A DNA stretch of 40,996 nucleotides from assembly GCA_016181585.1 (NCBI GenBank), contig JACOYX010000025.1, positions 1 to 40,996 of the forward strand. The letters run 5' to 3'. Each line of letters opens with the position of its first letter. The stretch's first letter is position 1. Of this stretch, positions 15,568 to 38,828 are shown one piece after another. A model generated the notes under the pieces. It searched no databases, was not told where the DNA came from, and saw only the letters and a list, made by a program, of their open reading frames with translations. Source of the stretch: Candidatus Sungiibacteriota bacterium. Its GTDB lineage: Bacteria > Patescibacteriota > Minisyncoccia > Sungbacterales > HO2-52-23. A program made the position numbers and the translations under genes.

Positions 15568-15639
15568 AGCGGGTAGGGGGAATCGAACCCCCATGTCTTG
15601 CTTGGAAGGCAAGTGCACGAACCATTGTGCTATACCCGC
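15568..15639 (-). tRNA. tRNA-Gly (anticodon UCC)
   Basis: Cloverleaf by hand: acceptor GCGGGTA/TACCCGC, anticodon arm CTTGC-CTTCCAA-GCAAG, T arm GGGGG-TTCGATT-CCCCC. Confidence 0.9.
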
Positions 15640-15643
15640 AATT

Positions 15644-16315
15644 TTAAACTTGCGATAGAGCCCCGAGCATCCACCCATTCATTCTTCTATATAATTGCAC
15701 ACCTTTTTCTTTAATACCTCCGCTGATGACTGCAATATGGGCTGTCCCGTACGGTAATTTATTTCTTTTTATTTTTGACTTATTTTGTCTTAGATCTATC
15801 TGCGTTTTTCTAAAATTTCCCCTTGGCGGTTGTGTCGCTTCACTCCAAAAGTTGATACACTCTTCTAAATTATTATCCAGATAGAGGTGTAACGTAACAG
15901 TAATATTTTCATTTGCCAAGCCACAAATCTTTTTAAACCACTTAACCGCCAGCTTGATAACCGATGGATCAGAATTAATTATGCGAATTTTTTCGAAAGC
16001 CTTGGTTCCTTCACCAATGTATAAACCCAAACCCAACAGCCACAAATCCCTTTCTGAGAACTTACCCACCTCTCTTGTGCCAACTTGTTTTAGTTTTTGA
16101 ATCTCACGAACTTTTCTATTATGACTTTTTTCTGCGCTTTTTACCGGCCCGTACTGTATTCTTTTTAGTACTTCTATATTCGGTTTAAACGGTCTATCTC
16201 TAAACCAATTGCTCAATGTACTTTTTGCAATCCCGATGTGCTTGTAAATCATGTTGTAAGAGTATCCGGCATCTCGTAATTTCTCAGCCTCCATTTTAAA
16301 CGGATTTCTATTCAT
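15644..16315 (-). CDS. HTH + LAGLIDADG-like protein (putative homing-endonuclease-related), paralog of 34027..34746
   Basis: N-terminal HTH (GYSYNMIYKHIGIAKSTLSNWF) and a LAGLIDADG-type motif (LWLLGLGLYIGEGTK). Its stop lies 4 nt before the 5' end of tRNA-Gly. Confidence 0.65.
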   Translation of the reverse strand: MNRNPFKMEAEKLRDAGYSYNMIYKHIGIAKSTLSNWFRDRPFKPNIEVLKRIQYGPVKSAEKSHNRKVREIQKLKQVGTREVGKFSERDLWLLGLGLYIGEGTKAFEKIRIINSDPSVIKLAVKWFKKICGLANENITVTLHLYLDNNLEECINFWSEATQPPRGNFRKTQIDLRQNKSKIKRNKLPYGTAHIAVISGGIKEKGVQLYRRMNGWMLGALSQV

Positions 16316-19039: not shown

Positions 19040-19597
19040 CTAATTCATAATGGACAAAATATTCTTAAGGACAATAGGGAGTTTGAGCACGGCGTCATCT
19101 CTTGAAAAATGTCCCTTATTTTTCTCAAGGACAAGTTTGGTCCCAAGTTTTTGCTCAAGCAATCTTCCATTTTCGATCGATACAAAAGGGTCATCTATAG
19201 AATAGACTCCAATGGTTTTTCCTGTCACTTTTTTAACGTTACTCCACCGTATTGGAGTTTCAAAGAAACCGGAAATGGCGCTAGTTTTTCTCGGGCGAAA
19301 AATAACTCTTCCTGCGACAAAAACTGCTCCGCCTATTTTTTCTTTTTTAAGAGTTTGGAGGTAGCGGATAATAGCAATGGCACCCAAACTGTGTCCGATG
19401 AAATAGGTGTTTTCGTCGGCAATTCCCACTGCCTCTCGTATTGTTTCCAGCCATTTCTCGAATTTTGGTTCATGAGAGTTTGTAAAACGTGGAACATATA
19501 CAGTAAATCCTCGCTTGATAAGTTCATCTTTAAGCCATGGGAACCAGCAATCGGTAGGGAAGGATTTATAGCCATGGATAATGAAGATACGTTTCAT
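19040..19597 (-). CDS. Alpha/beta-fold serine hydrolase (YdeN/RBBP9-like)
   Basis: IFIIHGY...WFPWLK...FIGHSLGA nucleophile elbow. Start set to ATG 19597 (MKRIFIIHGY), because the track's extension translates tRNA-Val. Confidence 0.8.
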   Translation of the reverse strand: MKRIFIIHGYKSFPTDCWFPWLKDELIKRGFTVYVPRFTNSHEPKFEKWLETIREAVGIADENTYFIGHSLGAIAIIRYLQTLKKEKIGGAVFVAGRVIFRPRKTSAISGFFETPIRWSNVKKVTGKTIGVYSIDDPFVSIENGRLLEQKLGTKLVLEKNKGHFSRDDAVLKLPIVLKNILSIMN

Positions 19598-19599
19598 AA

Positions 19600-19671
19600 T
19601 GGGCGGTATAGGAATCGAACCTATGCTCTCTGCAATGTGAATGCAATGTTTTACCATTAAACTAACCGCCC
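19600..19671 (-). tRNA. tRNA-Val (anticodon CAC)
   Basis: Acceptor GGGCGGT/ACCGCCC, anticodon arm TTGCA-TTCACAT-TGCAG, T arm ATAGG-TTCGATT-CCTAT. Its 3' end lies 2 nt before the hydrolase ATG. Confidence 0.88.
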
Positions 19672-19679
19672 TCTCATTA

Positions 19680-19903
19680 GGGAACAACTCTTATTGGACT
19701 GTCGTCGAATAACCTTTGGCTACAATTCCATAAATTCGGGTAAATCGCGATACGATTTACGGGAAATTTAGCGAAGCCGGGTATTTCCGTGCGAAGCGTA
19801 AAATTTCCCTGGCTTTTGCTCAGGGAAGCAAAAGAATTTTTAAAAAAATTTTCTCGTCCCGACATGTCGGGATCGCTTCAAAAGCTATTCGGCAACGAAC
19901 CCC
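19680..19903. mobile_element. Family B large element (degenerate left terminus)
   Basis: Shares a roughly 120-bp core with 30536-30789 (CAATTCCATAAATTCGGG...GGAAATTTAGCGAAGCCGGGTA...GCTTTTGCTCAGGGAAGCAAAAGAATTTT). Ends ATTCGGCAACGAACCC. Confidence 0.65.
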
Positions 19904-32987: not shown

Positions 32988-33047
32988 TCAGTCGAACCCA
33001 AGCAGATTATTAAGGTCTTCGACCCGCTTCACCATTTTTCCGATCAT
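32988..33047 (-). CDS. Micro-ORF, 19 aa (MIGKMVKRVEDLNNLLGFD)
   Basis: Strong SD (AAGGAGGG) 3 nt upstream. It is the first ORF after the consensus promoter at 33134-33162. Confidence 0.35.
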   Translation of the reverse strand: MIGKMVKRVEDLNNLLGFD

Positions 33048-33133
33048 TTGCCCTCCTTTATTTTGATTTTTAAAAACAAGGTTTTATCTTTCATTTTTCC
33101 GGCGAGTACGCCTACACTGAGCGCACCGTTACT

Positions 33134-33162
33134 ATTATACATTTTTGTAACATAAAAGTCAA
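33134..33162 (-). promoter_or_regulatory. Near-consensus sigma-70 promoter
   Basis: Minus strand: TTGACT (33162-33157), 17 nt, TATAAT (33139-33134). Confidence 0.65.
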
Positions 33163-33333
33163 CTTTAAATAAAAATAACCGCTTATATATGGGGTTGTTT
33201 TTATTAACGGGATATATTGGATTTAGTTCGAACGGAGTTTGGGCTTGAAATTTCTGGCGGGCGAAGCCAAAACGAACGGCGGGATTGAGCTCTTTAACAA
33301 TTTCAAGTTTTTCTTTGGCGGCAAATTCTTTGC

Positions 33334-33882
33334 CTAGGAATTTATGAAAAAATATAATACAAAATGAGCTACTACATAGGCAAATAAAGTGAGTAAAAAT
33401 AGGTAGGATAATACTATACTATCGAAATAATTCATTGCTCTGCGAGACCGCTTTAGCAAAAAATAAACTATTGAGTAGATGAGAATTGCATTAAAGAAGA
33501 TATCTACACCAATTACAGGAATAGAGGCAAAAGCATCTATGTAGTGGCAAAACAAATAATCTTTAGAACTCGAACACAACGGTAATAAGAGTTGGACAAG
33601 TAAAAATTCTCCTATTATTGAAATATTGATCAACCAAAATAAAATTTTATTGTGGTAAACACGAATTAAATCTGTTGAATCTACTGTTACCGGACTATGT
33701 GATTTTTCAATCGGCTTCGACGTTTTTTTGACACTAATGATCCAAGCAGTTAATAGCACTATTACAAATATCGGTAATAAAAGAAATGAGTATACCAATA
33801 ACCAGGAGCCAGCTGACGACCCGCTAGCGTATGTGATTGCCAGTATTAACAAAAGCATTAGTGTCAGTAAAACTTTATTCAT
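33334..33882 (-). CDS. Multi-pass membrane protein, unknown function, visibly AT-rich
   Basis: About 5 hydrophobic helices. ATG 33882 (MNKVLLTLMLLL), or TTG 33939 as in the track. No motif recognised. Confidence 0.6.
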   Translation of the reverse strand: MNKVLLTLMLLLILAITYASGSSAGSWLLVYSFLLLPIFVIVLLTAWIISVKKTSKPIEKSHSPVTVDSTDLIRVYHNKILFWLINISIIGEFLLVQLLLPLCSSSKDYLFCHYIDAFASIPVIGVDIFFNAILIYSIVYFLLKRSRRAMNYFDSIVLSYLFLLTLFAYVVAHFVLYFFINS

Positions 33883-34015
33883 ATAAATGAAAAAATTTCT
33901 TTTGCCCTTCTTTGATAAATCCTTTTTCTTTTCGCCCAAAAAGCCCCTTCAGATTCTATGCGAGCGGCGCGTCTCGCGCCGCGAGCTGACCTCTTCAAAT
34001 TTGCATTTTCCCAAC

Positions 34016-34089
34016 TGGCGGGGGCACTAGGATTCGAACCTAGATCGTTCGTTTTGGAGACGAAAATTCTGCCGTTGAACTATACCCCC
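34016..34089 (-). tRNA. tRNA-Trp (anticodon CCA), 3' CCA encoded
   Basis: Acceptor GGGGGTA/TGCCCCC, discriminator G, then CCA. Anticodon arm TTCGT-CTCCAAA-ACGAA, T arm CTAGG-TTCGAAT-CCTAG. Confidence 0.88.
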
Positions 34090-34746
34090 CATTTTTTCCA
34101 AAAATATTGTTGCGGTGGCTAACAGCTCTCTGGCTGTCTGATTACTATGATAATAAATTGTACTGCATCCAGGATAGTTTTTTCGAATGCGTTTTCCCGT
34201 ATGTGGTTTCAAAAAAGGTTTAATGAATTGATTCTTGGGAATGCGAGCCACGGATGACCAAAAAGCAATTTGTTTTTCTGTCTTGTGATATTCGTGTAAA
34301 TGCAAACAGACCCGGATTTTGGACTCATCAATAGGAAATGACCTTCGGAAAAGCGTAAGAAAAGTTTTAATTAATTGAGGATCTGAATTGGTGAAGCGCA
34401 CTCCATTAAAAGTATTTTTAGCGCCCTCACACCAATACAGAAGAGAACAAATCAGTTTGCAAATAGTTTTATCAAAATTAATATCTTGCAGGTCGTTTAT
34501 AGCCTGTTGTTTATAGCTCGCAATAATCTGCTCGGTCTTTTTTCGTTTGTTTTCTGCCGAAATAAGTTGTCCAAGCTTTATTTTTGTAAGTAATCTTTCC
34601 CGCGCAGAATTGGTAAGGGATATATTCCGAACCCAAACAGAAGCACTGCCTTTGGCTACCCCCAGCTCTTTTACAATTTCATTTAGAGAGTATCCTTGTT
34701 CTCTTAATGAGATGGCACGTCGTTTTTCTTCTATTTTTCGTTTCAT
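34027..34746 (-). CDS. HTH + LAGLIDADG-like protein, paralog of 15644..16315; its 3' end overlaps tRNA-Trp
   Basis: HTH GYSLNEIVKELGVAKGSASVWV and LAGLIDADG-type LICSLLYWCEGAK. The last 20 sense codons and the stop (34027-34089) are tRNA-Trp sequence. Confidence 0.6.
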   Translation of the reverse strand: MKRKIEEKRRAISLREQGYSLNEIVKELGVAKGSASVWVRNISLTNSARERLLTKIKLGQLISAENKRKKTEQIIASYKQQAINDLQDINFDKTICKLICSLLYWCEGAKNTFNGVRFTNSDPQLIKTFLTLFRRSFPIDESKIRVCLHLHEYHKTEKQIAFWSSVARIPKNQFIKPFLKPHTGKRIRKNYPGCSTIYYHSNQTARELLATATIFLEKMGGIVQRQNFRLQNERSRFES

Positions 34747-34838
34747 ATCCGAACTGGCAATCTATTAAATAAAGATAAACCGCTAGTTCAATGATATCAC
34801 TATTTACTTTACAGAAGAAGAAAAGTTATTCACACCGA

Positions 34839-34997
34839 CTACTTTTTTGTTTCTTTGTGCGAAATATGCTTTTTGCACCACCGGCAATACTTTTTGAGAT
34901 CGAGTTTGCGCTCAACTTTTTTCTTGTTTTTGCGGGTCCAATAGTTGATGCGCTTGCACTTGGTACACTGGAGTTTTATAAGAAATGGTTGTGGCAT
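34839..34997 (-). CDS. rpmG: 50S ribosomal protein L33
   Basis: Hand translation: MPQPFLIKLQCTKCKRINYWTRKNKKKVERKLDLKKYCRWCKKHISHKETKK (52 aa, CxxC...CxxC). It is below the track length cutoff. The plus-strand ORF 34791..35003 is its shadow. Confidence 0.9.
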   Translation of the reverse strand: MPQPFLIKLQCTKCKRINYWTRKNKKKVERKLDLKKYCRWCKKHISHKETKK

Positions 34998-35063
34998 AGA
35001 TAAAGAGTTTTAGCGGATTTTTCCGATGAACCTAAACTAACAGCTAAAAGCGAATTTGGCAAG

Positions 35064-35135
35064 AGCCGATGGTCGGGATTGAACCGACGGCCTACTCCTT
35101 ACCATGGAGTTGCTCTACCACTGAGCTACATCGGC
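35064..35135 (-). tRNA. tRNA-Thr (anticodon GGU)
   Basis: GCCGATGTAGCTCAGTGGTAGAGC..., anticodon arm ACTCC-ATGGTAA-GGAGT, T arm GTCGG-TTCAATC-CCGAC. Confidence 0.9.
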
Positions 35136-35192
35136 AGTATATATTTCCACTTCGCTTTTAAGGGACTATTGCCGAATACCCTTTGAAGCGCA

Positions 35193-35273
35193 TGCCCTCG
35201 GGAGGATTTGAACCTCCACGCCTTGCGGCGCTAGCTCCTAAAGCTAGTGTGTCTGCCGTTTCACCACGAGGGC
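35193..35273 (-). tRNA. tRNA-Leu (anticodon UAG), long variable arm
   Basis: Acceptor GCCCTCG/CGAGGGC, anticodon arm CTAGC-TTTAGGA-GCTAG, variable arm CGCCGCAAGGCG, T arm GGAGG-TTCAAAT-CCTCC. Confidence 0.88.
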
Positions 35274-35310
35274 GGAACAAGGGTGTTTACATATTATCTC
35301 AATATTACAT

Positions 35311-35347
35311 AAAAAATCAATCCCGGTCATACCGGAATTGATTTTTT
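35311..35347 (-). terminator. Hairpin terminator at the end of the pilin-like gene run
   Basis: AAAAAATCAAT-CCCGGTCATACCGG-AATTGATTTTTT. Symmetric, with A/T runs on both sides. Confidence 0.65.
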
Positions 35348-35354
35348 ATGTAAA

Positions 35355-35405
35355 GGGTTTGTTGCCGAATATCACTTATGAGCCGCAACTCCATAAACTC
35401 GTTCA
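35355..35405. repeat. Family B left-arm fragment
   Basis: GGGTTTGTTGCCGAATATCACTTATGAGCCGCAACTCCATAAACTCG matches the left arm of 30536-30789. Confidence 0.55.
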
Positions 35406-35705
35406 AAATCCTATTTGACTGCACGAGCCGAAGAAATCGCAAAGTACTTTCACAATGCCCCAGGCGGAGGCCATGATGAACATGCCAACAATACCCCACT
35501 GCATTACTTTCTTCCCTTTATCGAGTTTTGCATCACTCCCTTGGCTTCCAACGACATAGGTAATCACGCCATAGAGAAAAATAACCGTCGCAAGAACAAA
35601 CAGAAATTTTATGGCGGGGCTCAAGAGACCCACAATAATAGCATTTACGAGACTGTCTACGGTCGTATTTTCGACTGCGGCATATGCTGAATGAATAAAG
35701 GGCAT
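35403..35705 (-). CDS. VirB2/TrbC-like two-helix pilin-like protein, copy 5 (short or absent signal peptide)
   Basis: ...AIKFLFVLATVIFLYGVITYVVGSQGSDAKLDKGKKVMQWGIVGMFIMASAWGIV. Start uncertain: ATG 35705, or 35801 overlapping the upstream gene. Confidence 0.6.
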   Translation of the reverse strand: MPFIHSAYAAVENTTVDSLVNAIIVGLLSPAIKFLFVLATVIFLYGVITYVVGSQGSDAKLDKGKKVMQWGIVGMFIMASAWGIVKVLCDFFGSCSQIGF

Positions 35706-35712
35706 AGTGAAA

Positions 35713-36069
35713 TTATGGTTGTCGTGGAATATCTGTGGGAATACCCTGTCCGCCGACACCAAAATATTGAATAATAATATTGACGATCCCCCATACTGCA
35801 AGCATCACTGCGAGCCCTATAATACCGTATAGCATAAGACTGCGCGCCGCTTTCTGCTCCTTTTCTTCTGAACCTTTGGCGATGTACTTTATGACGCCCC
35901 AGAGGAAAATGAGCGTAGCGAAGACAAAGAGGAGGGGAATGATGATATTATTGAACGTGTCTAAAATGCGGTTGATGATTCCCTCTATAGCCTGTGGATT
36001 TTGCGCAAACGCGGCGTAGGGCACGAGTAGCGACCCGACTGATATAATTTTGAGAAGTGCTCTATTCAT
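35713..36069 (-). CDS. VirB2/TrbC-like pilin-like protein, copy 4
   Basis: Signal peptide MNRALLKIISVGSLLVPYAAFA, then helix, charged loop KGSEEKEQKAAR, helix. Confidence 0.7.
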   Translation of the reverse strand: MNRALLKIISVGSLLVPYAAFAQNPQAIEGIINRILDTFNNIIIPLLFVFATLIFLWGVIKYIAKGSEEKEQKAARSLMLYGIIGLAVMLAVWGIVNIIIQYFGVGGQGIPTDIPRQP

Positions 36070-36117
36070 AGAAAATAAAACCCAAATAATATTAGTAATG
36101 CAATTCGACCGTTTGTA

Positions 36118-36471
36118 CTAGAATTCTCCCGGCTCATCGGGAATTTTACCGATATTTCCAGACAAGAAGTACTGAATGAGGATATTCACGATACCCCAGA
36201 CTGATGCCATAACCGCAAGCCCTATAATACCATAGAGCATCAGGCCGCGCGCCGCTTTCTGCTCCTTTTCTTCTGAACCTTTGGCGATGTACTTTATGAC
36301 GCCCCAGAGGAAGATAATGGTTGCCAAAACAAAAAGAAAGGAAATCACTACGTTAATAGTGCCTCCTATATTGGAGAGAATTTCATTTAACTGGTTTTGT
36401 GCGCCCGCCTGCATGGGAACCAAGGATGCAAGCACGAAAAGGGTTGGATACAATTTATAAAGCTGTTTCAT
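36118..36471 (-). CDS. VirB2/TrbC-like pilin-like protein, copy 3
   Basis: Signal peptide ending MQAGA. Same helix-loop-helix layout. Shares a 66-nt identical block with copy 4. Confidence 0.7.
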   Translation of the reverse strand: MKQLYKLYPTLFVLASLVPMQAGAQNQLNEILSNIGGTINVVISFLFVLATIIFLWGVIKYIAKGSEEKEQKAARGLMLYGIIGLAVMASVWGIVNILIQYFLSGNIGKIPDEPGEF

Positions 36472-36544
36472 TATTATATTAGTAATTAATAAGCTGATTA
36501 AAGTGTTATTTTTTTATTTGGAACACGAACCGACCTTTTTTAAA

Positions 36545-36617
36545 GGGTCTATTGCCAAATGCCGTTTCTACTGCAATTTCATAATTTAGTTACGAAAGCG
36601 CGTCTGGCAACAGACCC
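36545..36617. repeat. Family B short hairpin element between pilin-like genes
   Basis: GGGTCTATTGCCAAATGCC ... GTCTGGCAACAGACCC, with an interior CTACTGCAATTTCATAATTT module shared with family A variants. Confidence 0.7.
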
Positions 36618-36618
36618 T

Positions 36619-36960
36619 TTATAATGTCTTCACAAAATTTACGAATCCATAGGCAAGCGCGGCGGCGCCCACGATGACTGCAGTGCCGATAAGCGTCCAG
36701 AGAAGTGTTTTCCGCGCCTCCTCGACACCCTTCATGTTTCCCCGCGCGGATGAAGCAACAAACTTAAAACCGATGTAGACCACTAAAAGTATGGCAATAG
36801 GGATTACGATAACAATGAGTGCGTTGATTAAGTAGAGAATAAACGAGGGGATATCGGTAAATCCTATCGGATTTGGATATTCTTCTTCCGCATACGCAAC
36901 GGATACTGGTGAAAGCATAACAAAAAACTGAACAGCAAACAATGAGAGGTTTTTCCACAT
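36619..36960 (-). CDS. VirB2/TrbC-like pilin-like protein, copy 2
   Basis: Signal peptide ...SPVSVAYA, then IVIVIPIAILLVVYIGFKFVASSARGNMKGVEEARKTLLWTLIGTAVIVGAAALAYGF. Confidence 0.7.
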   Translation of the reverse strand: MWKNLSLFAVQFFVMLSPVSVAYAEEEYPNPIGFTDIPSFILYLINALIVIVIPIAILLVVYIGFKFVASSARGNMKGVEEARKTLLWTLIGTAVIVGAAALAYGFVNFVKTL

Positions 36961-37059
36961 AATAATAGTTCCTATAAATTAGCAACTATAGAAGCTAGTA
37001 ATTAAAGTATTTTGAATTTCTAGCGGCTATTGACTAGTCGCTAATCGCTAATTTAGTCG

Positions 37060-37503
37060 CTATCCCAATGTTTTAGCAAAATTTACCGCCGCATAGACCA
37101 GCGCGGCTCCGCCGACGATGATGGCTGTGCCTATTATTATCCACTGGAGCATGACGCGGGCGTCTTTAAGCTTTGCTTCGTTGCCAGATGCGGAAGCCGC
37201 AACAAACTTAAATCCCGCCCAAATCAGCGCCGCAACGGCAAAAGGAATAGCAAGTTTCATAAGCGCCGTAGAGAGGTGCTCTATGAGAGTGGGCAGATCG
37301 CTGGCATTGAGCGGGTTTTCGATGCGAATACTATACGCGAGGGCGGGATGCGCGTAGCTTAAGAGAGTAGCATACGGCAATATATATTTATTTGAAAATA
37401 TTTTCACAAGCGTCTGTGCAATTGCGAGGAATACTCGACGAAGCAATCTCTTTATCCGAATAATTATAAATTCACAAACTCTTCGGTAATCAAAAAATAG
37501 CAT
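37060..37503 (-). CDS. VirB2/TrbC-like pilin-like protein, copy 1 (start uncertain)
   Basis: ...LLSYAHPALA cleavage-like site, then AIPFAVAALIWAGFKFVAASASGNEAKLKDARVMLQWIIIGTAIIVGGAALVYAAV. An internal GTG near 37405 is a plausible alternative start. Confidence 0.65.
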   Translation of the reverse strand: MLFFDYRRVCEFIIIRIKRLLRRVFLAIAQTLVKIFSNKYILPYATLLSYAHPALAYSIRIENPLNASDLPTLIEHLSTALMKLAIPFAVAALIWAGFKFVAASASGNEAKLKDARVMLQWIIIGTAIIVGGAALVYAAVNFAKTLG

Positions 37504-37627
37504 ACTAGATCGAGAAGAAATACGGAAGTATAGATATCCATTATTTTGTGAAGCGTGTAATGTGTAACATATAGCGCAAGAATTTTTTAAATATTGAGTT
37601 ATACGTTACAAGATTTGCGATACACGG

Positions 37628-38734
37628 TTACGTGCATTGTCCTGTTTTAAATTTTTGTTCGACCGAATTTACTTTTGGGATATATTCTCGCGTTACGCCG
37701 TAGCCCGGGTGGCCGTCGCGGGAATTGGGAAGTGTGTGTTCGTTGTTGTCCCATTCGCATTCAAACCTAAACATGCGTTCCTTACTGCAATTTGCGCTTG
37801 GTTGAATTGCTTTTTTCCCTGCGTTATAGGCGGCCGATGCCAAATCGTCGGCGGAATAGACTGTTGTGGCCTTGGGTGCAAACTCTTGCCTTAGCTGACT
37901 ATAGTATTGAGTGCCTTTCATGATATTATACGCCGGATCCGCAAGCTTTACTAAGGAAGCTTTTGAATCCAGATCGCGCGCGGTCTCAAGCCGCATTTGC
38001 ATAAGACCATGAGAGTGCCCGCCATCGTTGTCCGTACTCATGGCGTCGGTCCGCCCCCCGGATTCCACGCTGATAATGGCTTTAATGCGTTCAGGACTTA
38101 CTCCGTAGCGCGCGGAGGCTTCGTTGATGGCATCGTTATATGTGCTCGTATTCGCGCAGGCCGCATCTCCTATAGGGTTTTTAAGAGCCATTCCTTCGTC
38201 TCCGGTAGTGCTCTCCCATGCCTCGATATCGGCGCCCGTTTTTCCGTCTATGATATCTTCATTTTTTTTTGTATTGTCTACCGTGGGAAATGCGGGAGAA
38301 TTGCATTCTATCTCATTCCACGGCCGGCCGATGCCCTTAATTTGCGCCGCACCGCTTCCGACAATTTCTTGTCCGACAAGGATTTTAATCAAAGTATCGA
38401 TCGCAAGCCACGAAACCAAAACTATCACTACCCCAAAAAGCGAGTTTTTGATTATTTTTTTTCCTTTTTCAAGAAGTCCGGGGGAAGCTGTCGCAAAGAG
38501 CATCAAAATCCCGCCGTAGGCAAGCATGACAATCGCGATAATAACCGCCGCGCTCATCCCGAAGTTGATAAGGTTTTGCAGAAGTTTAAAAATATCACAT
38601 GCGGTACAGATATTTTTATCTCCGCAGGCGGGAACCAAAGGGCCAAAAAATTTAAAGTTGGTTTGGGCTTGGGCGATGGATGCAGAAAAAGCAAATAGAA
38701 GGAAAATTAAGCTAGTAGTTCGGAATCGAGACAT
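37628..38734 (-). CDS. Secreted fusion: pilin-like two-helix N-domain + SLT-type lytic transglycosylase (VirB1-like)
   Basis: ATG 38734 with signal peptide MSRFRTTSLIFLLFAFSASIAQA. Pilin-like segment: MSAAVIIAIVMLAYGGILMLFATASPGLLEKGKKIIKNSLFGVVIVLVSWLAI. C-terminal SLT motifs: ISVESGG, GLMQM, AAYNAG. Confidence 0.8.
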   Translation of the reverse strand: MSRFRTTSLIFLLFAFSASIAQAQTNFKFFGPLVPACGDKNICTACDIFKLLQNLINFGMSAAVIIAIVMLAYGGILMLFATASPGLLEKGKKIIKNSLFGVVIVLVSWLAIDTLIKILVGQEIVGSGAAQIKGIGRPWNEIECNSPAFPTVDNTKKNEDIIDGKTGADIEAWESTTGDEGMALKNPIGDAACANTSTYNDAINEASARYGVSPERIKAIISVESGGRTDAMSTDNDGGHSHGLMQMRLETARDLDSKASLVKLADPAYNIMKGTQYYSQLRQEFAPKATTVYSADDLASAAYNAGKKAIQPSANCSKERMFRFECEWDNNEHTLPNSRDGHPGYGVTREYIPKVNSVEQKFKTGQCT

Positions 38735-38747
38735 GATTGAGTGCGAT

Positions 38748-38828
38748 AAATCATGAATCAAGAATAATGAATCAAGGGGAAATTAATTCTCATGCATGAT
38801 TCATAATTTATAATTCTTGATTCAAGGT
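38748..38828. repeat. Family E intercistronic hairpin, second copy
   Basis: AATCATGAATCAAGAATAATGAATCAAGG ... CATGATTCATAATTTATAATTCTTGATTCAAGG. Same GAATCAAGAAT word as 2200-2273. Confidence 0.55.

Follow-up and report, generated by a model that had tools for sequence, protein, structure and literature searches.

Introduction

Homing endonucleases of the LAGLIDADG type in bacteria of the Candidate Phyla Radiation (CPR) are predominantly single-domain enzymes that are abundant in rRNA introns, and one of them, I-ShaI, is homodimeric; the LAGLIDADG_3 type has been reported with a variable N-terminal extension, and the Saccharibacteria are exceptions without rRNA insertions (PMC11270868). A free-standing homing endonuclease gene within a tRNA gene cluster is known from phage T4, where it encodes the GIY-YIG enzyme SegB (PMC2330249). 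Here we analyze a 239-codon open reading frame (ORF) on the minus strand of a 40,996-nucleotide (nt) stretch of DNA from a Candidatus Sungiibacteriota bacterium (contig JACOYX010000025.1 of assembly GCA_016181585.1, positions 1 to 40,996; hereafter the window). The ORF runs without a stop codon into the gene for tRNA-Trp(CCA), and our favored reading of it (probability about 0.55) is a homing-endonuclease-like gene that is free-standing and occupies a tRNA 5' leader. A full-text literature search found no description in the CPR of LAGLIDADG-like genes that adjoin the 5' end of a tRNA without a gap. A free-standing LAGLIDADG-type element would by itself be of a known kind; the niche, a tRNA leader, and the shared stop codon would be new.

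The proteins encoded by this ORF and its relatives resemble I-ShaI and other single-domain CPR enzymes in host group, in size (about 210 amino acids) and, probably, in having one LAGLIDADG-type domain, and they share with the rRNA-intron enzymes a highly conserved RNA gene as the target (here putative). Unlike those enzymes, they are encoded free-standing in a tRNA 5' leader rather than within an intron or the RNA gene. They also differ from them, and from I-DmoI, in having an N-terminal helix-turn-helix (HTH), a 40-residue helix and an insert of about 40 amino acids between the third and fourth strands. The likeness to SegB lies in a free-standing putative endonuclease gene among tRNA genes and in the pairing of a putative nuclease with a separate DNA-binding module, which is typical of such enzymes. 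SegB, however, belongs to another catalytic family, is phage-borne, and neither lies flush with a tRNA 5' end nor shares a stop codon with one.

The bacterial protein WhiA has two degenerate LAGLIDADG domains, from which the catalytic acidic residues have been lost, and its HTH is C-terminal. Like WhiA, the window protein combines a probable LAGLIDADG-type scaffold with an HTH, is encoded by a bacterial chromosomal gene and is under purifying selection. It differs from a WhiA-type protein in that its HTH is N-terminal, it has a single domain and its E107-G108 pair is invariant, and no match to LAGLIDADG_WhiA was found in it. With regard to the overlap with the tRNA, the closest parallels are the transcripts of animal mitochondria, which are punctuated by tRNAs, include gene/tRNA overlaps and have truncated stop codons that are completed by polyadenylation, and the secG-leuU co-transcript of Escherichia coli, an mRNA-tRNA precursor that is cut by RNase P and in which the secG ORF has its own stop. 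In both, as would be the case here, the mRNA 3' end is set by excision of the following tRNA, and the frame abuts or overlaps that tRNA. Unlike in secG-leuU, the stop codon of the window ORF lies inside the tRNA.

Results and Discussion

The reading frame continues into tRNA-Trp

The minus-strand gene order is tRNA-Leu(TAG), tRNA-Thr(GGT), rpmG, a 92-nt spacer, the 239-codon ORF and tRNA-Trp(CCA) (Table 1). Codon 219 of the ORF (ATG, 34092-34090) directly precedes nt 1 of the tRNA (34089). Codons 220-239 (GGIVQRQNFRLQNERSRFES) are tRNA-Trp sequence, and the stop codon TAG (34029-34027) corresponds to tRNA nt 61-63, on the 3' strand of the T stem. Reading of the sequence identified no in-frame stop 5' of the tRNA in the window ORF. 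The initial annotation of this DNA had described codons 220-239 and the TAG as lying inside the tRNA, and its coordinates are exact. Group I introns reportedly occur inside tRNA genes of Patescibacteria, according to a preprint. Unlike those genes, the window tRNA-Trp is complete and uninterrupted as judged by ARAGORN and Rfam, and the ORF is free-standing. No self-splicing intron was identified around it, as an Rfam search of positions 33000-36000 at E <= 1 returned tRNAs only.

The junction consists of an A6-T-G6 run, in which a 1-nt change would restore the stop codon usual for the family. A read-through that does not exist could in principle stem from an accident of gene calling or from a homopolymer error within G6, but we consider this very improbable. 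Contigs from Logan for three groundwater-metagenome runs of different samples match positions 34080-34092 with 0 differences and 0 gaps. The same 239-amino-acid product is known from an independent assembly, and other members of the family use the same frame (P0063, which ends ...GGIVQR, and P0112, which ends ...GVVQR). Even after a 1-nt "correction" the stop would remain inside the tRNA. The frame into tRNA-Trp is not an assembly error.

Linkage to tRNA-Trp and position of the stop codon

A search with a 9-sequence alignment retrieved 80 related metagenome loci at 42-63% identity. Of 81 loci, 77 have a homolog directly 5' of tRNA-Trp(CCA) and in the same orientation, and the other 4 are contig ends. 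Further look-ups of representatives found a tRNA adjoining in the same way in 9 of 9. Thus, the association with a tRNA, which the initial annotation had noted at one locus, is family-wide and exceeds chance; relatives scattered away from tRNAs, which that annotation would have taken as a refutation, were not found. The gene for ribosomal protein L33 (rpmG) is upstream of the ORF in 60 of 70 related loci, and where it is absent the ORF still accompanies tRNA-Trp. The order rpmG, ORF, tRNA-Trp, in which the initial annotation saw an interrupted rpmG/tRNA-Trp neighborhood, is therefore itself the conserved one.

Stop positions were counted in 55 distinct (dereplicated) orthologs. The most common stop is at tRNA nt 8-10 (23/55), where the tRNA residues U8-A9-G10 read TAG. 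In ten others the stop is elsewhere inside the tRNA and in three it lies beyond it, with the frame open through the whole tRNA; seven have a stop that abuts or overlaps nt 1, and the remaining 12 have their own stop 6-37 nt 5' of the tRNA. The frame that leads to nt 8-10 is used by 23 of the 36 orthologs that enter the tRNA, compared to an expectation of 1/3 (p 2e-4, uncorrected for phylogeny). Of 120 distinct tRNAs in the fetched loci, 63% carry TAG or TAA at nt 8-10, so these positions offer a ready-made stop.

In the Saccharibacteria metagenome-assembled genome at locus L001 (62% identity) the order rpmG, ORF, tRNA-Trp is the same and the ORF terminates as ...KMGA-TAG; tRNA nt 1 is the G of its ATG, and U8-A9-G10 is the TAG. 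Compared to copies of the L001 type, the window copy has one extra G between the ATG and tRNA nt 1. The TAG at nt 8-10 is missed in the window copy because this 1-nt offset shifts the frame, and the D-arm TAG at which similar frames of other members stop is CAG in the window tRNA-Trp. The window ORF is therefore predicted to be translated to the T-stem TAG, which gives the protein a non-conserved tail of about 17 extra residues. The opposite slip is found in L005, where a 1-nt deletion near the junction leads to a TGA 9 nt before the tRNA.

The exact stop position thus drifts, whereas the zero-length spacer does not. In 54 of 89 matches the projected C-terminus keeps a fixed register to tRNA nt 1, to within +/-1 nt. 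The 20-codon extension that was emphasized in the initial annotation is real in the window, but it is not what the family conserves; conserved are the zero-length spacer and, as the usual stop, nt 8-10.

Just 3' of tRNA-Trp (33956-34021, minus strand) we noted a GC-rich, hairpin-containing element of about 60 nt (…GAGGTCAGCTCGCGGCGCGAGACGCGCCGCTCGCATAGAATCTGAAGGGGC…). There is one copy in the window, and the related loci have none. In four metagenome runs its word depth is 500-8,000x, compared to 3-8x for the ORF, and it is matched at 90-99% by many different contigs, which on the tRNA side continue into apparent 3' ends of other tRNAs. The element has no Rfam match at E <= 1 and none in phage records, and its predicted RNA fold is unexceptional (z -1.6).

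A large family of CPR proteins under purifying selection

Judging from sequence comparison, the ORF belongs to a large and so far unnamed protein family of CPR bacteria (Patescibacteria). A phmmer scan of 1.84 billion protein representatives identified 3,467 relatives of the window protein at E <= 1e-3 and 1,513 at E <= 1e-10. The names given to family members at source, where there are any, are "hypothetical protein". Relatives are typically 216-226 amino acids long and align to query residues 1 to about 220, so the natural C-terminus of the family coincides with the tRNA boundary. The 239-amino-acid window product is absent from NCBI proteins, and a window paralog that has its own stop (Table 1) is present there. 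ORFs with a stop inside a tRNA may tend to drop out of annotation, and the family may thus be under-counted.

In an alignment of 83 sequences, R15, G18, E107, G108, N120, W163 and G193 are invariant, and K110, S121, D122, P123, H149, H151, Y153 and H154 are nearly so. The ratio of nonsynonymous to synonymous substitution rates (dN/dS) between close pairs is 0.07-0.23, and thus the protein is functional. Of 56 distinct copies one is degenerate: the tRNA-Trp-linked homolog at L071 (1793-2527) is split by an in-frame TAA (2009-2011).

Protein architecture

We modeled the window protein with AlphaFold2 using the 83-sequence alignment. The confidence (pLDDT) is 96.6 for the full-length model and 96.8 for the C-terminal domain alone. 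The N-terminal HTH proposed in the initial annotation is borne out by a three-helix unit at residues 2-39 and by matches to HTH_23, both in the window protein (E 5e-4) and, above the gathering score at 28.4 bits, in the ortholog with 62% identity. Weak N-terminal HTH matches are all that a Pfam/NCBIfam scan returned for the window protein.

Some of the HTH matches are to transposases and related proteins. The N-terminus of IS3 transposase, resolvase HTH_7, the PAI subdomain of Sleeping Beauty (matched by the family profile at E 0.0018) and a PHROG transposase are all weakly matched, as might be expected if the protein were a tRNA-targeting transposase or integrase. However, the Pfam/NCBIfam scans identified no DDE, serine recombinase or tyrosine recombinase domain. 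Nor were terminal inverted repeats or target duplications found (flank repeats score 8.37 versus 8.14 in shuffles), and the ORF is positioned at the 5' end of a tRNA that is intact. We therefore regard this explanation as extremely improbable. Separately, an 11-nt direct repeat, GCCAGTT[C/G]GGA, appeared to bound the ORF and tRNA as a cassette, but 52 other loci score no better than shuffles and we attribute it to chance.

The motif LLYWCEGAK, which the initial annotation singled out as LAGLIDADG-type, proves to be the most conserved of the family, and its invariant E107-G108 pair is located at the C-terminal end of a helix (residues 93-107), as in LAGLIDADG enzymes. In the model this helix is followed by strands at about residue 108 and at 116-120, which form a short hairpin, and then by a helix, a strand at 144-150 (HLH.YH), the insert of about 40 amino acids, a strand at 194-199 and a final helix that terminates at the tRNA. 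The order of elements would fit that of a LAGLIDADG domain if the roughly 40 residues between the third and fourth strands are an insert.

PF14528 (LAGLIDADG_3) is matched by 9 of 58 orthologs, the best at 25.2 bits (gathering score 22.5). Four of these were checked individually, and only that from L055 is above the gathering score, with profile positions 3-52 of 82 covered. Most family members are, unlike members of the LAGLIDADG Pfam families, too divergent to be recognized by Pfam. The family profile weakly matches the second-motif region of I-DmoI (E 0.24), which the family motif, ...LY.xEGxK followed by ...N(S/K)(D/N)..., resembles. Among the defence-system models of PADLOC, "HEase" alone matches, weakly, in the motif region of the window paralog (E 0.005). 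In a Foldseek search of BFVD, the matches with the best TM-scores are homing endonucleases and intein DOD domains (TMq 0.44-0.47, root-mean-square deviation 2.9-5, all at E >= 0.1).

Paralogs and a canonical LAGLIDADG_3 gene at other tRNAs

The window encodes a second member of the family beside tRNA-Gly(TCC) (Table 1). Its motif is more canonical than that of the tRNA-Trp ORF; a LAGLIDADG profile match is likewise absent. An extended -10-like sequence, TGTGTATAAT, precedes this paralog.

Elsewhere, paralogs lie 5' of tRNA-Thr(GGT) in L060, L064/65 and L067-69, and 5' of tRNA-Tyr in L056, where the stop is at nt 8. Representative look-ups identified family members 5' of tRNA-Arg(CCG) and tRNA-Arg(GCG), with overlaps of 15-22 nt. 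Other loci lack an ORF at these paralog sites: tRNA-Thr(GGT) has none in L071, where it forms an adjacent pair with tRNA-Thr(TGT), or in L056, and the tRNA-Tyr site is empty in L067 and L060.

Locus L001 also contains, at 112-962, a canonical ORF of 267 amino acids with an HTH and a double LAGLIDADG_3 (PF14528, E 5e-15). Its last 38 nt overlap tRNA-Tyr, which has the same orientation. It is apparently a different endonuclease lineage with the same habit of occupying a tRNA leader.

Homing-type gene or host factor

We favor a homing-endonuclease-type gene because a LAGLIDADG-type motif, whose acidic residue is invariant, is combined with an extra DNA-binding module; because a genome holds several paralogs, each linked to one particular and highly conserved RNA gene; and because paralog sites are found both filled and empty, with an occasional pseudogene, while a canonical LAGLIDADG gene occupies a niche of the same kind. 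We count the low GC content of both window copies (37%, versus 43% for the window and 45-49% for four large ORFs measured) for the same reading. The family genes lie directly 5' of tRNAs, within their presumed leaders, on the same strand and with essentially no spacer, and form subfamilies tied to particular tRNAs: that of the window ORF to tRNA-Trp, and others to tRNA-Gly, -Thr, -Tyr and -Arg. By analogy to other single-domain CPR enzymes, the proteins would be selfish homing endonucleases, probably homodimeric. They would exploit a highly conserved target, the tRNA gene, and a harmless niche. Nuclease activity and homing are thus predicted from sequence.

Several results weigh against this. 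No LAGLIDADG Pfam match was found in the window protein at E <= 10, and no LAGLIDADG structure is in the top 50 PDB matches of Foldseek for either the full-length or the domain-only model. Matches to OmpA-like and IspF structures (TM <= 0.42) were taken as noise. An hhalign comparison with the canonical LAGLIDADG_3 ORF of L001 aligned the HTH only or nothing, with no match in the domain, and the domain-only profile has no useful match among PDB sequences. The search against LAGLIDADG families suggested by the initial annotation thus recovered the family through 9 of 58 orthologs and failed for the window protein itself, and the fold assignment is weakly supported. We regard the evidence as real but thin, and interpret the C-terminal domain as divergent LAGLIDADG_3-like with roughly two-thirds confidence.

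The other results on this side concern inheritance, and they bear on the main rival, a domesticated host factor. This would be a LAGLIDADG-derived, HTH-bearing protein that binds DNA or RNA and is kept beside particular tRNAs, for example as a regulator or maturation helper, with vertical inheritance and with the overlap as a product of genome compaction. The strong purifying selection and the single broken copy in 56 fit a useful host gene too. The same locus is occupied across the 42-63% range of protein identity, mostly with rpmG upstream. Close pairs of ORFs have close rpmG and tRNA sequences (rho 0.22, which is weak; there are no discordant pairs), and the comparison of ORF with rpmG/tRNA identity, itself a weak one, gives no sign of short-range horizontal transfer. 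No ORF-less tRNA-Trp allele was seen among the loci, all of which were retrieved as homologs of the ORF, and metagenome contigs across the junction show no deletion joint. An exact look-up of the window rpmG, aimed at strain variants without the ORF, returned no record. Relatives of the ORF are also absent from 50,697 phage records.

A host factor would not readily account for several paralogs at different tRNAs in one genome, at sites that are empty in other loci, or for a canonical LAGLIDADG_3 endonuclease gene at the same kind of site in L001. The catalytic-type E-G pair is invariant and has not been lost as it has in WhiA, and the GC content is below that of the four large ORFs measured. 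On balance, we consider domestication rather unlikely.

Predicted expression and processing

Returning to the homing-type reading, the ORF would be co-transcribed with the tRNA, such that its mRNA is the tRNA 5' leader and RNase P frees an intact tRNA whatever the length of that leader. The candidate promoter is an extended -10-like sequence (Table 1). The TGATATCAT 9-mer is present at the identical distance in L010, and TGCTATAAT is found in L001, L003, L005 and L026. In the closest relatives such boxes, which are consensus matches only, lie 16-45 nt 5' of the ATG. They were identified upstream of the ORF in 13 of 52 loci versus near the tRNA in 6 of 52. When the window region is scanned for promoter and terminator consensus sequences, the counts do not exceed those in shuffles.

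With the coding sequence ending at tRNA nt 1, the nearly universal U8-A9-G10 usually serves as the stop. Stop repair of the polyadenylation type is, to our knowledge, not known in bacteria, and cleavage by RNase P at nt 1 would therefore leave a non-stop mRNA, in the 36 of 55 orthologs that enter the tRNA and in the window copy, and cap expression of the protein.

It is conceivable that this outcome is itself selected, as a switch in which RNase P produces a non-stop mRNA, tmRNA rescues the ribosome and the protein is degraded, while translating ribosomes delay folding of the tRNA and protein output is coupled to tRNA maturation. Such a switch is compatible with either function of the protein. 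In its favor, 36 of 55 orthologs end inside or beyond the tRNA and 43 of 55 have their end no more than 2 nt from it, entry into the tRNA favors the frame of nt 8-10, and few promoter-like boxes are close to the tRNA. However, 12 of 55 orthologs and the window paralog have their own upstream stop, the stop drifts by 1-nt indels among close relatives (L001, L005 and the window copy), and the tails are not conserved. The pattern is as expected of a neutral by-product of a zero-length spacer and a "free" TAG (TAG or TAA at nt 8-10 in most of the 120 tRNAs). We judge a selected switch improbable; the drift, the upstream stops and the non-conserved tails point to the non-stop outcome as a by-product rather than a selected brake.

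More tentatively, thousands of these genes may constitute a distinct class of CPR elements in tRNA leaders, with subfamilies dedicated to particular tRNAs, a stop at U8-R9-G10 and a message that RNase P converts to a non-stop form; we think it possible, but doubtful, that all of this holds. If it does, the arrangement would be to bacteria what tRNA punctuation is to mitochondria and would set a time limit on expression of a potentially toxic endonuclease. On the homing-type reading in general, the 5' leaders of tRNAs would join introns, inteins and phage intergenic regions as niches of homing elements, which would help to explain the harmless persistence of such genes in tiny CPR genomes. The family would also offer a natural test system for translation termination versus RNase P processing versus rescue of non-stop mRNA, and a pool of compact, possibly programmable, putative endonucleases aimed at tRNA genes.

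Table 1. Features of the two tRNA-adjoining loci in the window.
Feature	Position	Strand	Basis
tRNA-Trp(CCA), CCA encoded	34016..34089	-	ARAGORN; Rfam tRNA, 64.8 bits (gathering score 29)
ORF, 239 amino acids, ATG start; HTH, long helix, probable divergent LAGLIDADG_3-like domain, tail of 20 codons within the tRNA	34027..34746	-	ORF listing, sequence, AlphaFold2
ORF/tRNA overlap: 20 sense codons and TAG, tRNA nt 1-63	34027..34089	-	Sequence
tRNA-Trp U8-A9-G10 (TAG), usual stop of the family, out of frame in the window copy	34080..34082	-	Sequence, comparison with relatives
C-terminal alpha/beta domain, residues 93-218, a1-b-b-a2-b3-[~40-amino-acid insert]-b4-a3	34093..34470	-	AlphaFold2, conservation
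LLYWCEGAK motif, residues 102-110, LAGLIDADG-like helix end	34417..34443	-	Sequence, conservation
Single long helix, residues 46-86, joining HTH to C-terminal domain	34489..34611	-	AlphaFold2, pLDDT ~98
N-terminal HTH, residues 2-39	34630..34743	-	Pfam HTH_23/HTH_7; AlphaFold2 helices 2-16, 21-28, 32-39
Extended -10-like TGATATCAT, 44 nt 5' of ATG, candidate promoter for ORF and tRNA	34791..34799	-	Consensus match only
rpmG (ribosomal protein L33), upstream neighbor	34839..34997	-	Ribosomal_L33, E 1e-17
tRNA-Thr(GGT)	35063-35135	-	tRNA annotation
tRNA-Gly(TCC), adjoining the paralog	15568..15639	-	ARAGORN
Paralog, 223 amino acids, 32% identity, E 4e-21, motif LGLYIGEGTK, own TAA 4 nt before tRNA-Gly	15644..16315	-	Sequence comparison

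Other features of the window

A 215-amino-acid ORF with a TTG start (19040-19687, minus strand) runs through tRNA-Val(CAC) (19600-19671) and was considered as a second overlap. It has a plausible start (MKRIFIIHGY…) downstream of the tRNA, and the overlap looks like an artefact of ORF calling. On the minus strand at 35403-38761 there is a run of small ORFs, four of which (35403-35801, 35713-36069, 36619-36960 and 37060-37503) have T4SS_pilin or TrbC-VirB2 pilin matches. The ORF at 36118-36471 is, by eye, visibly similar to these neighbors. The run then continues with a 377-amino-acid protein that has a pilin-like N-terminus and an SLT lytic transglycosylase domain.

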